In this document: piece after piece, positions 6,166 to 20,389 of the stretch
Layout: each line of letters opens with the position of its first letter
Numbering within the stretch: the first letter of the stretch is position 1
Assembly (NCBI GenBank): GCA_051439505.1
Contig: JBFRWI010000057.1
Span: 1 to 43,680, forward strand
DNA length: 43,680 bases
From: Hormoscilla sp.
Lineage (GTDB): Bacteria; Cyanobacteriota; Cyanobacteriia; Cyanobacteriales; Desertifilaceae
Direction: 5' to 3'
Translations under genes and position numbers: made by a program
The notes under the pieces: generated by a model
Seen by the model: only the letters and a program-made list of their open reading frames with translations
Databases searched by the model: none
Told to the model about the DNA's origin: nothing

Positions 6166-6831
6166 ATGAGCGATAATCTGGATGCCAGCAGTCTGACTCT
6201 GGAAGAAGTTTATCAGCTGTTCAAGTTTGAAGAGAGTTTAAATGACGATATCTCTTCAAAACTTTCCCTGGAACCTCTCGCGGAGTTTGAACAGCAGGAA
6301 GTCTTGAAACTCCGCGAGGTTTTTCGGAGTTATTATAATGCTGGTAAAGTTTCTGAAGGACAAATAAGACTACTTCCTATTGCTCAATTACTGTGGTTCT
6401 CTGGTTTCTATCATCCTAAAATAAAAATCATTCTGGAAGAGGATATTACACAAACTTACGTCGAAGATATAGATACAATTATTAAAGGAAGAATGGATAT
6501 TTTGGCAGTAACCAGAGTCCAGGAAAATATGAAAGTTACGCCTTTGTGGATTTTGTTGATAGCAACTAAACATAGTACGGTTAATACCTTAGAGGGTTTA
6601 CCACAACTGCTGACTTATGCCTATAAAAGCCTGTTAGAACAAGCATCTGTCTGGGGACTGACTACCAACGGACTAAATTATCAGTTCGTTTATCTCGAAC
6701 GAGGGGATGAACGATCGACCTATCAACTATTTCCAGAACTTAGCCTGATACGCCCCCAACAGTCAATCCAATTGCTGCAAGTTCTCAAGGCTATCTGTAA
6801 GTTACACTTGATGAGTCCTATCCGGGTTTAA
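6166..6831 (+). CDS. Stand-alone HsdR-N-like / PD-(D/E)xK restriction endonuclease-fold protein
   Basis: ATG at 6166 after AAGGAG; motifs IIKGRMDILAV...GLPQLLTYAY...VWGLTTNGLNYQF. Confidence 0.75.
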   Translation: MSDNLDASSLTLEEVYQLFKFEESLNDDISSKLSLEPLAEFEQQEVLKLREVFRSYYNAGKVSEGQIRLLPIAQLLWFSGFYHPKIKIILEEDITQTYVEDIDTIIKGRMDILAVTRVQENMKVTPLWILLIATKHSTVNTLEGLPQLLTYAYKSLLEQASVWGLTTNGLNYQFVYLERGDERSTYQLFPELSLIRPQQSIQLLQVLKAICKLHLMSPIRV

Positions 6832-9800
6832 ACCACTGATAACAAACCAGTTCGATGTCCCGTGCCTTAATCATTGCCAAGGGGCTCACATTATCTTCAT
6901 CTTCCAACGGATAATAAAGCTCTTCGTCAACAAACAACTCATCCAAATCAGAAAGTAGCCCGTAAAAATCCCCATTGTCCACATATTTTTCCCAGATCGG
7001 CTTCATGTCTCGCTCGTAAGTACGGATATTGCCAGTTTTGATTAATTTCAGCACCCGTGCTTTAACTTCCTGATATTCTGGATCTAGGTTCTGTTGAGTC
7101 AGAACGTAGTGAATTTTTTCCAACAGTTTGGTCAACTTAGGAGCTATTCTACTGCTAGTTTGTTGCCGCTTGCAGTCCTGTAGTAAATTATCCACCGCTC
7201 TTGGTAAAATGTCAAAGATGGCGTTATCAAAGGGTACCGGCTCCATCCGATCGGGATTGGGAAAGTCGGAAGCGTTGCATCTCAGCCAATTAAATATTTT
7301 CCGCTTCTGACTCAGGCGATCGCCTATTTTAGTAGAGATAGTCCCGTTAATGCGAGGGTAGAAGTGCCAGAAATGTCGGTCTCCCACGCGGAAGGCAAGA
7401 AACAGACCATCTAGATCCGGAACGTCGGTGCGGGTGCTGTGAATTCCCAAAGGAATCTCCTCCGCAGCTTCCGCACCAACCTGTTGCAGAAACTCGATTA
7501 AAGGAAAGCGCATTTCGTCGAGAGAAACCAAATCTGCTGCTAACTCCAATTCTTCCAGAATTTCTGCTTTCTCCGCATCAGTTTCTGCTTGCTTGAGTCG
7601 CCGCAGTTCTTCCAGAGATTTCTCCGAGATTACTTCTCCCAACACGCTGCCATCTAATCCTACTGTTTCGTCAATGTCCGCAATCCGTTTTTGCAATCTG
7701 GCGACCAATCCCAACAATTCCTCTAGACCTTCTTCGGGAAAGCAGTTATAAATGAATAGCTCTTCATAGTTGGTGCCGATGCGATCGATCCTACCAGCCC
7801 GCTGAATCATCCGCACCGGGTTCCAGTGCAGGTCATAGTTCACCAAAACTCCCGCATCTTGCAGGTTTTGTCCTTCGGAAAGCACGTCGGTACAAATTAG
7901 GATATCGATTTCTTTACTTTGATATTCTTTTAGTTCCTCGTCGTTTTCACAGTTAGACAAGGGCGCAAAACACTTGACTTTTTCCTGTCGCTGCTTGCTT
8001 TTCGTATCGCCAGTCAGCAGGTCGATGGTTAGTTGTCGTCCCTTTACCTGCATTGACTCTAACCATTCTCGATCTTTGAGCAGTTGACCGTGCAAATATT
8101 TAGCAGTATCCTTGAAGTAACTGAACGCCAAAATTTTCTGCCCCTGGAGGCGACCCTTCAACAACTCTTTGAAGGCTAACAGCTTGCGATCTGACTCTTG
8201 AGAGCGTTCCACTGCTGCTTTAATCTGCTTCAGGACGTCTAGGATGCCTTCGAGAATTTCCATATCAGAGGCGATCGCCTGTTGCAGTGCATCAGTCCGA
8301 TATCCCTGGGGGTCAATTTCATCCAGAGATGAAATCAACTCCTCAATAGCGGTCGTTTCATCTTCATCCGTCTCCACTGCCAAAATCTTGCGAAACTTTT
8401 TACTTTCCAGCAGTTTCCCCTCTTGCAGGTATTGCTCGAACCTTTGCTGGAACTGCATCTGATAGCTGAGGCTATTTTCAAAAGCAATCAGCGAACTTTC
8501 CAGCCGCTTCAAATACAGAGTTTTCATCAGCGCCACCACAGCTTCATTCCGCTTTACCCGCGCTCGATCCTGCCGGTCCTTGCTTTTCTTAAAGTACCGG
8601 ATATTGTAAGGAGCAAAATGTAGTCTATCGATCTGATTGGCGATGCCTGCGTATAGTCCCTGGAAGCTGTCTTCAAAATTATAGGTAAAATTGGACAGTT
8701 GGCGCTTAGGAAAATGAATCTCCTGGCCACCGATTGCAATTTTATCTCCTGCCTGCTGTCGCTTAATCACGTCTTGGCGACTGCGCCGCACCATTGTTTG
8801 CAGCAGCAGTTCCGTGATGTCCATAACCCCTTTATCCACCAGTTGGAAGTAGCTTTTGAGGTTAGTAATGCCCCATTCGCGGTAGTAGGTTTCGCTGTTG
8901 CGGGTTAACAGTAGCATTTGGTGATAAAGGTCATAGATGCTGTTGTTAATCGGCGTAGCAGTCAGCAGCACTACCCGTTTATTGCGCTTGCCACTGCTGA
9001 TTAACCGCTGGAGATTGCGATAGCGATTTGTGGCCGAATTGCGGAAGTTGTGGGATTCATCGACAACCATGATATCGTGCTTGCTGTAGCGACGGACATT
9101 GAATTCTTGGCGACTAATCTCTTCCTGGGAAACCACATCAGCTTTGATGCCAAATTCATCTAATTTCTTCAACCACACTAGCTGTCGCAGTTGTGCCGGG
9201 CAAACTATCAGGGCGCGGGGGATATAACCTTGGCCTTTGTCTTTAGCCAGATAATGTTCGATCAATCGCAAGGCGATGTAGGTTTTCCCTAAACCTACAG
9301 AATCTGCTACCATAACCCCTTGATGGCGTTCCAATAGTTTGACCGATCGTTCGTAGCCTTCCTGCTGGAAACTAGCCAGTTCCAGGACCGTGCGATCGCC
9401 TGCTTCCCTTGCCGTATCTGACTTAAATAATTCGTACAAAGCCTTGATAAATATCTGATAAGGGGTATAGGGCTTGCTGCCAAACTTCGAGCTTTCCAGG
9501 GTATCTATCAGCTTAGTTTTGTAATCTTTGTCAACCGTCGGATGATTCCAGAATTTATCGAACCAGTTGTTGCGAAGGTCTTCAGCAATACTTGGCTGTT
9601 TGTTTACCACATTCAGCTCCGTGTTACCATTTAAACCCGATGGGGTAAAGTTACTGGAACCGATAATGCTATAGTTGTCAAAGATGTAAGCTTTGGCGTG
9701 AAAAAATTGGCTGTTGTCATAGAGGCGGACGTGAATACGATCTTGACGCAGATAGGCAATCAGTCTGTCAATTCTCTGCTTGTATTCTCGATTATAGGGT

Positions 9801-10069
9801 TCTCCTTCCAGCAGCAGTTGCTGTTCGCGGCGGTAGTATTGTTGCAAGTCAATGCGCGATCGCTCTGCGGGTTGAATAGCGGGGTCGCGCCCAATAAGCA
9901 GACGCAAGCTAGTCAGGTTGTAAAAAGCTGCTTCGACCCTTACCCATGCTTCCATGCGGAAAAATCCCGTAGCAATGTCCAGGCGAGTCTGGTTCTCGTG
10001 CAGAATAAATTCTCGGAGAACAGCTTCTAGTTTATTTTGAACGTTGTCTATGTAATCTGGAATTGCCAT
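6818..10069 (-). CDS. PLD-nuclease / SNF2-type superfamily II helicase fusion (restriction/defence-associated type)
   Basis: HKD-like FHAKAYIFD...GSSN; Walker A ADSVGLGKT; Walker B VVDESHNFRN; TATP; SEGQNLQ...YDLHWNPVRMIQRAGRIDRIG. Confidence 0.92.
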   Translation of the reverse strand: MAIPDYIDNVQNKLEAVLREFILHENQTRLDIATGFFRMEAWVRVEAAFYNLTSLRLLIGRDPAIQPAERSRIDLQQYYRREQQLLLEGEPYNREYKQRIDRLIAYLRQDRIHVRLYDNSQFFHAKAYIFDNYSIIGSSNFTPSGLNGNTELNVVNKQPSIAEDLRNNWFDKFWNHPTVDKDYKTKLIDTLESSKFGSKPYTPYQIFIKALYELFKSDTAREAGDRTVLELASFQQEGYERSVKLLERHQGVMVADSVGLGKTYIALRLIEHYLAKDKGQGYIPRALIVCPAQLRQLVWLKKLDEFGIKADVVSQEEISRQEFNVRRYSKHDIMVVDESHNFRNSATNRYRNLQRLISSGKRNKRVVLLTATPINNSIYDLYHQMLLLTRNSETYYREWGITNLKSYFQLVDKGVMDITELLLQTMVRRSRQDVIKRQQAGDKIAIGGQEIHFPKRQLSNFTYNFEDSFQGLYAGIANQIDRLHFAPYNIRYFKKSKDRQDRARVKRNEAVVALMKTLYLKRLESSLIAFENSLSYQMQFQQRFEQYLQEGKLLESKKFRKILAVETDEDETTAIEELISSLDEIDPQGYRTDALQQAIASDMEILEGILDVLKQIKAAVERSQESDRKLLAFKELLKGRLQGQKILAFSYFKDTAKYLHGQLLKDREWLESMQVKGRQLTIDLLTGDTKSKQRQEKVKCFAPLSNCENDEELKEYQSKEIDILICTDVLSEGQNLQDAGVLVNYDLHWNPVRMIQRAGRIDRIGTNYEELFIYNCFPEEGLEELLGLVARLQKRIADIDETVGLDGSVLGEVISEKSLEELRRLKQAETDAEKAEILEELELAADLVSLDEMRFPLIEFLQQVGAEAAEEIPLGIHSTRTDVPDLDGLFLAFRVGDRHFWHFYPRINGTISTKIGDRLSQKRKIFNWLRCNASDFPNPDRMEPVPFDNAIFDILPRAVDNLLQDCKRQQTSSRIAPKLTKLLEKIHYVLTQQNLDPEYQEVKARVLKLIKTGNIRTYERDMKPIWEKYVDNGDFYGLLSDLDELFVDEELYYPLEDEDNVSPLAMIKARDIELVCYQWFKPG

Positions 10070-17598: not shown

Positions 17599-20190
17599 AT
17601 GGTTCAACAGCTGGAACGAAACCACCTGGCAGCGAGCGAGGTGGTCCCTGAGCCTAGTCGAAGGGTAGAACCACAGACTAACCAATTTCCACCGGAAGCA
17701 TCTGTGAGCTTACCGGTGTTTTATCGGACTTACAGCCGGCGTACAGCCTCCGGCAAACGAGAGTCCTGGAAAGACGTGTGTTCGCGGGCGATCGCCGGAT
17801 TGACAGAATTGGGTAAGTTAACTCCCGAAGAATCAGACCTGCTTTACCAGATGCAGCTACAGCAGAAAGCCTTATCTTCTGGTAGATGGCTGTGGATAGG
17901 AGGTACGGAGTGGATTAAGCAACCGGAAAATTTCCCCGGTGCTTACAATTGTTCTTCTACCAATATCCTTGACTGGCACTCCTTTGGCTTGCTGATGGAT
18001 TTGGCCATGATGGGATGCGGAACCGGTGCCGTTCTCGAACCCCGCTACATCAATCAACTACCACCTATTCGCAATCACCTGCAGGTGAAATTGCAGGGCC
18101 AAATTGGTGTGACTCCCCCAGAACGGCGACGGGAAGAATCTGAGGTGGAAATATCGGGAAACAAGGTAATAATTCACGTCGGCGACTCCCGCCAAGGTTG
18201 GGTAGGTTCTTATCAAGCTTTGTTAGAATTATCTACTGATGAGCGTTTTACCTCGGCAGTGGAGGTAGACATAGATTTGAATGATGTTCGCGCTGCTGGG
18301 GAACCTCTCAAAGGCTTTGGCGGTGTAGCAAACCCGGTGAAATTGCCAGACCTATATCTACGCTGTGCCGCGATCTTAAATAAAGCTGTCGGACGGCAAT
18401 TGAACTCGGTAGAATGCTGTTTGTTGATAGATGAAGCGGCTGTAACAATTGTGGCAGGCAATATTAGGCGCAGCGCGGGGATTCGTCAATTCGCATTTGA
18501 TGATGAATTGGGTGGGAATGCCAAGAATAATCTCTGGCAACAAGATGAAAATGGTAACTGGCGCATAGACCCCGATCGGGATGCCTTGCGGATGGCAAAC
18601 CATACCCGGGTGTTTCACCACAAACCCAGTTTAGAAGAATGTATCGCAGCAGTTCGCAAGCAGTATTATAGCGGCGAGGGGGCGATCATGTGGGCTGGGG
18701 AAGCTGTAGCCAGAGCTAACGGCGATCTGCTGCCAAGTCGCGAGAGCAAACGTAAGACTGATTTTCTGCAAGCTTACAGTCAAGGAAAATCACAAGAGTG
18801 GTTGCAAGAACGCTATCCTCATATAGAGTCGGAGGAATTAGAACATCGGTTAGCCCGTGTGGGACTTAACCCGTGTGGTAAGTGATTTTGCCTCACGTTA
18901 AAAACCCCGCAAAATCGGTAGAAGCTGAGATGCTAATACCGAGGTAAGTAGAGGAACTAAAAAGCCTTTACCACCGTAGAGCGTACCAGGTGAAACTTAG
19001 AAATTAACTAAGAATATAAACTGGCAAGAGTGTGGGGCATTTACTGAGATAAGTATGTGAAAATGTACGCCGATCTACAGGAAAGATGAACCTGTAGAAC
19101 TAAAGGATAAAAAGCCTTTAGGATAACAAGACTGGAAATCATCGGGGCGAATTTTTTCTGTAATTTGTCAGAGATTCACCTGAATCAAATTGACCCGTAT
19201 AATTATCAAGAACAGGCGGACGCATTCACCGCTGGGGCCCTTTCTGTGGCGACGCTGCTGAATCATAAATTTGTCGAGCCTCGCTACCGGTACAGTCGGG
19301 AATTAGACCCAATTGTGGGCGTATCTTTCACGGGACTGTTTGATTTTTTTGTTAATGCTTTTGGAGTTGATTGGTTGCGCTGGTGGGCAGAAGGACGCCC
19401 TCAAACTGTACAAGGTTTGGAGTTTAAGCAGCGGGAGATAGAATATCTGAGTCGCTGGAAAGAAATTGTCCATCGGGTGGTTTGGGATTATTGCGATCGC
19501 CATTCCTTAAAATGCCCAAATCGCTGTACAACGGTGCAGCCTAGTGGTACGAAATCTTTACTCACAGGGGCGGCCCCAGGATGGCATCCTCCCAAAGCTC
19601 AACGCTTTATTCGGCGCGTTACTTTTGCCAAAAACGATCCCGTAGCACTGGCTTGTATTGACTACGGTTATAATGTGGTTCCTTCTCAGTCGGATAAGGA
19701 TGAAAATGGCAATCTTTTAGATGACCCGTTTTCTCCCCTGTGCAATGAATGGCTTGTAGAAATACCGGTGGCTGTACCTTGGGCGGATTTGCCGGGGGCT
19801 GATGCAATTGATATTGCTGGTTTTAGCGCGATCGCCCAAATGGATTTCTACTTAACGGTGCAGCGTTACTGGACGACCCACAATTCTTCTGCTACCATAG
19901 AACTGCGGGAAAACGAAGTCGCAGCTTTAGGGACTCGGATATATGAGGCGATCGCCCTTGATGAAGGATACATCTCAGCGGCCCTGTTGGCGAGGTTTGA
20001 CGACCATCAAAGCTTCCCGCGCTTGCCATTTGAGCCCATTGACAAGCAGCAGTATGATAAGCTGATCTCAGAAGTGGAAATGCGACGTCAGACAGATGAT
20101 TTTCAGGCAGCTTTGAGTCGCTATGATAATGGCTACTCCGCTGAAGGCCCCGCTGGATGTGACTCTGATAAATGTCTGTTTCCGAATTAG
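17599..20190 (+). CDS. nrdJ: Adenosylcobalamin-dependent (class II) ribonucleotide reductase, two exons: join(17599..18879,19135..20190), 778 aa
   Basis: AYNCSS, VAGNIRRSA, GLNPCG|EIIGANFFCNLSEIHLN, TTVQPSGTKSLL and C-terminal GCDSDKC; the exons are in frame once 18880-19134 is removed. Confidence 0.95.
18880..19134 (+). ncRNA. Group I self-splicing intron (255 nt, no ORF) in nrdJ
   Basis: The 5' exon ends in U paired to G in P1 and the intron ends in G. P3, P4, P6, P7, P9 and P10 can be paired by eye (see findings). Confidence 0.92.
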
Positions 20191-20207
20191 GGCGATCGCG
20201 AGAAAAT

Positions 20208-20389
20208 GTAGGGTGGGCATCGCCCACCATCAACGGGCATGCTAGCGAAGAAAATGTAGGGTGGGCATTGCCCACCATCTACTTCGCTGATTTTTCTGAA
20301 ACAGGAGGAGTAGGCCCCGCTGGGTAGGGTGCGGTCTTGCACCAGTTGGTAGTACCACACCCGCTCATGGTGGGCGGTGCCCACCCTAC
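20208..20389. repeat. GTAG-type REP-like palindrome cluster
   Basis: GTAGGGTGGGCAT(C/T)GCCCACC at 20208 and 20256, a degenerate copy at 20324 and an inverted copy at 20369-20389. Confidence 0.8.

Follow-up and report, generated by a model that had tools for sequence, protein, structure and literature searches.

A family of group I introns at the catalytic NPCGE codons of nrdJ, examined from an endonuclease-less copy in Hormoscilla sp.

In Hormoscilla sp., the gene for class II ribonucleotide reductase (RNR), nrdJ, is interrupted within its catalytic motif by 255 nucleotides that contain stop codons. Is this gene broken, or is the insert removed from its RNA? And how is the insert kept at a site where congeners do without it? 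These questions were addressed in a stretch of 43,680 nucleotides of contig JBFRWI010000057.1, here called the window, to which all coordinates refer. The genome has about one HIP1 octamer per kb and a cyanobacterial gene content.

The split nrdJ gene and the fold of its intron

All features of the locus lie on the forward strand. Exon 1 (17599-18879, 427 codons) ends with LNPCG and matches positions 15-378 of TIGR02505 (E 8e-97), the model of monomeric B12-dependent ribonucleoside-triphosphate reductase. Exon 2 (19135-20190, coding 19135-20187, 351 codons plus stop) begins with EIIGANFFCNL and matches positions 379-723 (E 3e-115). The two exons score 325 and 386 bits on contiguous parts of the model (cut-off 340), and this full-length match together with NPCGE makes the product a monomeric class II RNR (RTPR). 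We take NPCGE to hold the catalytic Asn, Cys and Glu of the reductase. Exon 2 also matches PDB 1L1L (E 5e-10), and a 60-residue query matched no solved structure.

When 18880-19134 is removed, 778 stop-free codons and a terminal stop remain, encoding HRLARVGLNPCG followed by EIIGANFFCNL and joined at NPCG/E; the joined DNA reads CCGTGTGGT followed by GAAATC. The unspliced frame meets TGA at 18883-18885, and 10 stops lie within the insert, whose G+C content is 39.6% vs 49.4% in the exons. The sequence-only reading of this DNA had placed the ends of the insert at 18880 and 19134, and with the stop-free join and the contiguous TIGR02505 match they are exact.

That reading had also claimed that NrdJ depends on splicing, and the genome bears this out, as NrdJ is the sole reductase found. 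The exons match nothing but themselves in the 93%-complete assembly, and the profiles of class I large, class I small and class III RNRs, which matched 12, 8 and 6 of 14 control genomes, respectively, had no match in it. A further reductase could lie in the part of the genome that this assembly lacks.

A promoter scan gave 7 sites vs 3.5 ± 1.9 in shuffles. Incidentally, some 50 bases of the nrdJ N-terminal coding region (window 17621-17674) are absent from the contigs of two relatives. Downstream of nrdJ lie REP-like palindromic repeats (20201-20282 and 20353-20389) with a 12-base core that occurs 467 times in the genome, and the minus strand at 6818-10069 encodes a 1083-residue protein with PLD and SNF2 helicase parts that may belong to a defence system.

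The insert (18880-19134) was described as a group I intron in the sequence-only reading, and all helices named there were found. It is 255 nt long without an ORF or P2, and its ends are identical in 35 genomes. P1 (18872-18897) places U18879.G18890 at the 5′ splice site, with U.G in 42 of 42 alignment rows. P10, pairing 18883-18889, a segment shared with P1, to 19135-19141, is readable from the sequence and lies outside the covariation count. The 5′ strand of P3 (18905-18911) pairs with 19031-19037, and P4, a short P5 of 3 pairs, P6 and P6a (18915-18975) were assigned by helix pairing and alignment. P7 consists of G(A)GCGUA (18979-18985) and UACGCC (19066-19071), the latter from the covariation count. 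Its pair G18981-C19070 is presumably the guanosine-binding pair expected of group I introns in general. Between P7 and P3 lies a P7.1 and P7.1a extension (18986-19024), found by the covariation count and by RNAalifold. The 3′ strand of P3 and P8 follow (19031-19059), with the loop L8 (19045-19052) at the position of an endonuclease ORF in relatives. Two P9 hairpins and the terminal G19134 complete the intron (19074-19134), and the last codons of the long relatives' ORF overlap the RNA here. The terminal G is set by the codon join; in relatives a G was sought before Glu by the script, so that tally is not independent.

The fold was tested with an alignment of the window copy and 41 homologues (31 cyanobacterial and 11 Bacillota rows), picked by hand from 80 distinct short copies and aligned by sequence only. 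Over these 42 rows, 96.7% of 2629 cells are paired and both sides have changed in 39 of 63 pairs, including 6 of 7 in P3 and 3 of 6 in P7; these figures are not probabilities because the structure comes from one row and the rows are kin. Covariation is seen in P3, P4, P6, P7 and P8 and thus in the core with its P3/P7 pseudoknot, although the counts in P4 and P6 are lowered by a shift of the Bacillota rows there. P7 occurs in seven paired versions among the rows, three adjacent pairs co-varying, while the G-C pair after the bulge stays constant (42 of 42). None of 500 shuffles reaches any of the covariation measures, and slid controls pair 34-43%. P1 is almost invariant and therefore covariation says little on it. 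An independent RNAalifold consensus recovers P1, P3, P4, P5, P6a, P7.1, P8 and both P9 hairpins, and the fold of the single strand has a z of -5.4, with 0 of 200 shuffles equally stable.

Subgroup IA is characterized by a P7.1 extension between P7 and P3. Such an extension is present, and assignment to this subgroup would fit the anatomy of the intron.

A search with covariance models had been proposed as a check, and here the expectation failed: Rfam RF00028 does not match the window intron at the gathering or E-value level. The window P7 reads GAGCGUA/UACGCC vs AGACUA/UAGUC in the Rfam consensus. With 12 further loci, two members of the nrdJ intron family stayed below the cut-off of 50 bits, with 31.5 bits (E 4e-5) and 29.3 bits (E 2e-4), and both have the usual P7 letters with the same P3-P9 assignment as the window copy. 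The Rfam group I model and the subgroups are called incomplete in an excerpt of PMC11878797. A match of the Rfam family SAM_alpha (22 bits, cut-off 36) was rejected, being the P1 hairpin.

The loops of P6a (18955-18964) and of the last P9 hairpin (19105-19116) have alike A-rich sequences closed by GG/CC, and the latter sequence is almost invariant in two phyla and in other core types. The genome holds a second group I intron (L159, G000:C41:16117-16335) with 70 bits for RF00028, where ARAGORN finds no tRNA.

Probable splicing of the intron

From the observed ends, fold, conservation and family, we infer splicing: the insert is almost certainly a functional, endonuclease-less group I ribozyme that undergoes the two usual transesterifications. 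By general group I chemistry, free guanosine in the P7 pair G18981-C19070 would attack the bond after U18879. G19134 would next occupy the guanosine pocket, P10 would align the exons, and ligation would restore NPCGE. Ribosomes would be released from unspliced RNA by the stop at intron codon 2.

RNA runs bear on the ends. In three RNA runs, 8-18% of words were present. One metatranscriptome contig of run X1, belonging to a relative with about 93% similarity, passes directly from 18879 to 19135 and skips exactly 255 bases; depth is similar over neighbouring DNA, and no contig lies over the intron. This contig may be an intron-less allele; given this depth, the lack of contigs over the intron and the commonness of such alleles, it confirms the ends only. 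A 10-kb contig of run X3 retains the intron, and run X2 does not cover the site.

The ribozyme could be real but require a host protein or maturase, a possibility that is compatible with ribozyme splicing and that we consider rather unlikely. The 3-pair P5, the lack of P2 and a P7 off the usual sequence would suit such help, but the changes in P7 compensate each other and its G-binding pair never varies. The intron ORF itself cannot be the helper because this genome contains no homologue of it.

Distribution of the family and the ORF of its long members

In the sequence-only reading, introns of this kind in bacterial chromosomal protein genes were said to be rare. An intron-only DNA search gives a different picture, matching 43 of 401 genomes of the phylum. 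Forty of them were inspected, leaving out three weak ones (G074, G165 and G191): 35, window included, have the intron in nrdJ, in every case at NPCG/E, 4 matched only via a sister intron in rtcB, and 1 has it in a phage-like gene. Genus g23 has the intron in 97 of its 127 genomes, and these copies cluster with named Nostoc records; genus g5 has it in 50 of 79. An uninterrupted NPCGE site is found in 71 of the 401. The codons CCG TGT GGT, required by P1, stand immediately before the intron in all 34 junctions listed, vs 8 of 71 uninterrupted alleles.

A pattern scan of named genomes, with at least 120 matches, extends the range to Nostoc, Microcoleus, Microseira, Phormidesmis, Chamaesiphon and others; about a quarter of 120 were chance matches without an RNR and were excluded. 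Among the matches listed, Bacillaceae, Paenibacillus and Maledivibacter have the intron in dimeric NrdJ, at the identical codon. In the intron tree, the window copy groups with those of Microseira wollei and 253-nt copies of Microcoleus (95/91), all without an ORF. An in-frame stop lies within the first five intron codons in 68 of 69 cyanobacterial copies.

Other elements were seen on the way. Two other group I core types occupy NPCG/E in Bacillota nrdJ (L039 and L120, 257-259 nt; L082 and L115, 176-177 nt), with an identical guide sequence, and the 176-nt copies are very small; a Bacillota intron of other core type at this site scores 83.5 bits with RF00028. Bacillaceae nrdJ genes seem to hold further insertions at 13 loci (L039, L042, L045, L052, L067, L071, L072, L082, L083, L108, L114, L115 and L117), where the frame is open for only about 220-250 codons upstream, and the second insert of L052 has a Cys-rich ORF. 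An A+T-rich repeat is inserted in the P7.1a loop of L178. The sister intron of cyanobacterial rtcB (RNA ligase, PF01139; L179, L180, L182, L183 and L219, in G107, G366, G083, G166 and G035) sits at MGSLGGG/NHF and has a LAGLIDADG-like ORF after P9, which L182 and L183 keep in full and L179 and L180 only in decayed form. G107 contains both the rtcB and the nrdJ intron.

The claim that the window copy has lost a homing endonuclease gains from its relatives, for which an alignment of homologues had been recommended. In the set of loci L009-L118 for which both intron ends were located, 8 of the 69 copies from cyanobacteria are long (1153-1200 nt, one of them repeating the sequence of another) and have a full ORF of about 320 residues in L8, extending through the 3′ strand of P7 and P9. 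Among Bacillota copies, 6 of 19 are long and 2 of them have a full ORF, homologous to the cyanobacterial one. Deletion remnants of the ORF remain in L035 and L038. In the window, a P9-region peptide, PVELKDKKPLG, equals the C-terminal end of the relatives' ORF; it was not counted as a remnant because it is also structural RNA.

At E 0.001, 1078 relatives of the ORF protein are found among 50%-identity representatives. A 51-row profile picks up T7 endonuclease I at E 1.7e-5 and, at E 0.008, the DNA-binding domain of I-TevI. The protein carries RSxxE...PDF...EIK and NUMOD3, with invariant E22, P53, D54 and E64 and four Cys, so that it combines the PD...ExK motif with DNA-binding modules as a PD-(D/E)xK homing endonuclease does. 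Its Pfam nuclease match is below the cut-off, and NCBIfam has no model for it. The structure model reached a pLDDT of 88.9 with 51 rows (35 and useless from the single sequence), and a fold search with the 51-row model returned nothing at E 0.001 or better, the weak matches being R2, Bax1, I-Bth0305I and TnsA. Phage records contain no homologue at E 1e-5, and a limited literature search found no paper on an intron endonuclease of such build. The L8 ORF is thus a candidate homing endonuclease by its sequence, sharing the PD-(D/E)xK motif with T7 endonuclease I and I-Bth0305I and NUMOD3 with I-TevI, and is absent from the window. The family would have spread by homing with this PD-(D/E)xK endonuclease encoded in L8. 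The window copy would be immobile and inherited, kept because only its exact removal leaves the active site intact.

The intron belongs to a known class and probably to an already published family. Meng, Zhang and Liu (2007), as cited in excerpts of PMC2853384, PMC12702839, PMC1995217 and PMC3984707, reported that the class II RNR gene of Nostoc punctiforme PCC 73102 contains a spliced group I intron with an insertion element; the same excerpts treat group I introns of this type as rare. The window intron is probably of the same family: the host is likewise a cyanobacterial class II RNR gene, and named Nostoc records carry the window's family at NPCG/E, although PCC 73102 has no record among the 80 named rows of the pattern scan. 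In three g23 copies (L175-L177), L8 contains a nested, G+C-rich insert of 60-86 nt whose flank is repeated, recalling the insertion element in the 2007 title; the window copy lacks one. An excerpt of PMC2795772 puts the number of group I introns curated in reductase entries at over 100, and copies of the nrdJ family may already stand in databases or supplements.

Introns of class I RNR genes, in Arthrospira platensis (PMC2853384) and in nrdE and nrdF of the Bacillus cereus group (PMC2248736), are similar in that they interrupt chromosomal RNR genes and have a stop just inside the intron. As far as the excerpted descriptions allow comparison, they differ in their class I hosts and in the GIY-YIG endonuclease in nrdF. 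Phage introns (Bacillus phage PJN02 and Clostridium phages) are 66-72% identical over 72-85% of the intron and have the P7.1 extension, but split other genes (RecD-like helicase and tail genes). Such look-alikes are unannotated in L172 (PJN02), L173 (phiCD211), L174 (phiCP39-O) and L181 (G120), their hosts being genes for a RecD-like helicase, tail proteins and a tape-measure-like protein, the last with an HNH-like ORF.

Could the intron be retained because it adjusts NrdJ synthesis to GTP, light or the growth state of the cell? Endonuclease-less copies with an intact fold do persist, in the 97 of 127 genomes of g23 and in most of the 50 of 79 of g5, but persistence follows from the need for exact removal. 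The early stop in similar introns is read in an excerpt of PMC2853384 as a sign of translational regulation. Against a regulator, intron-less alleles are common, also among near kin (71 of 401 genomes of the phylum, 4 of 4 congeners and 28 of 79 in g5). Group I introns usually bind guanosine with an affinity below cellular GTP levels, which counts against it as well. We regard retention for regulation as improbable, and the sensing of GTP pools suggested by the sequence-only reading found no support. A dead or non-splicing insertion, leaving nrdJ a pseudogene or coding for two polypeptides, can hardly be right: the missing Rfam match and an ORF caller that gives two frames, the second from TTG at 19165, would agree with it, but both exons are intact with no other reductase found, a start at 19165 would lose the catalytic Glu and the Cys of FFCNL, and the fold is under pairing selection.

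Neighbouring inteins and a possible route of intron loss

Two intein sites flank the intron. NP/C (18873-18874), 6 bases upstream, is empty in the window; 4 of 4 congeners, all of them without the intron, have a LAGLIDADG intein there. FF/C (19158-19159; FH/C in most relatives) is also empty in the window and holds an intein in many intron-less relatives. Among same-family genomes, one has the intron, one has an empty intron site with an intein at FH/C, 24 bases downstream, and 7 have no match.

In g23, CG/EI is uninterrupted in 26 of 127 genomes, and all 26 have an intein (22 downstream, 3 upstream, 1 both). Intron and downstream intein occur together in 0 of 127, no intron match has room for an ORF, and 4 genomes fall in neither the intron nor the uninterrupted count. 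The single g23 intein that was fully read has two LAGLIDADG-like motifs. An exon tree was built from distant exon sequence of the 26 intein alleles, 18 intron alleles (6 of the 97 in g23 and 12 named Nostoc records) and 3 outgroups. Intein and intron alleles are intermixed with at least 11 state changes, and a tree that puts the downstream-intein alleles in one clade is rejected (p-AU 2e-5). Of the 22 downstream-intein alleles, 18 have a short codon tract upstream, vs 1 of 18 intron alleles.

The g5 pattern is less strict, as 12 of 50 intron alleles also have the downstream intein and the 28 intron-less alleles of 79 divide into 14 with the downstream intein, 6 with the upstream intein and 8 with neither. 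When 30 of the 71 uninterrupted alleles of the phylum were taken, 17 had neither intron nor intein. Strict exclusion of intron and intein as a general rule was rejected by the double carriers of g5 and the alleles with neither. A Fisher value was set aside because it takes no account of kinship. The 8 alleles of g5 with neither element (L260, L261, L263, L264, L267, L269, L272 and L273) all have CCC or CCT for Pro; with these codons P1 would be weaker, and the alleles might resist the endonuclease.

The g23 pattern suggests that the intron is overwritten when an intein homes in from an intron-less donor. The donor's intein would insert 24 bases downstream (or 6 upstream), with the donor's flanking codons copied along, and this co-copied flank would delete the immobile intron to the base, repeatedly and in an essential chromosomal gene. 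Intron copies with the so far undescribed T7-endonuclease-I-like homing nuclease, which is found at this codon across two phyla and two NrdJ subfamilies, would re-invade. As a whole, with intein homing as the exact-loss step and re-invasion from such copies, we give this cycle an even chance of being right. The exon tree gives no direction of change, and simple recombination over a short tract would leave a similar pattern. Targeting of conserved sites, co-conversion and intron loss by exon gene conversion in mitochondria are described in excerpts of PMC2814812, PMC12007492 and PMC4059233. No paper on the prevalence of the nrdJ intron, its endonuclease or intein-driven loss was found in a literature search that covered subscription journals thinly.

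A group I intron in nrdJ is by itself a textbook class in a known hot-spot gene, and its value lies less in the intron than in its unexpected prevalence, an uncurated endonuclease and a testable pattern of intein-driven loss. In many filamentous cyanobacteria and in some Bacillota, an intron that Rfam does not call splits an essential gene, and such NrdJ genes are therefore easily read as broken. The L8 ORF, which belongs to no curated family, is a candidate homing endonuclease whose target would be the most highly conserved codons of class II reductases. With endonuclease-bearing, decaying, endonuclease-less, empty and intein-bearing alleles, the nrdJ locus is a large natural series, which allows a test of exact intron loss, the least understood step of the homing cycle.
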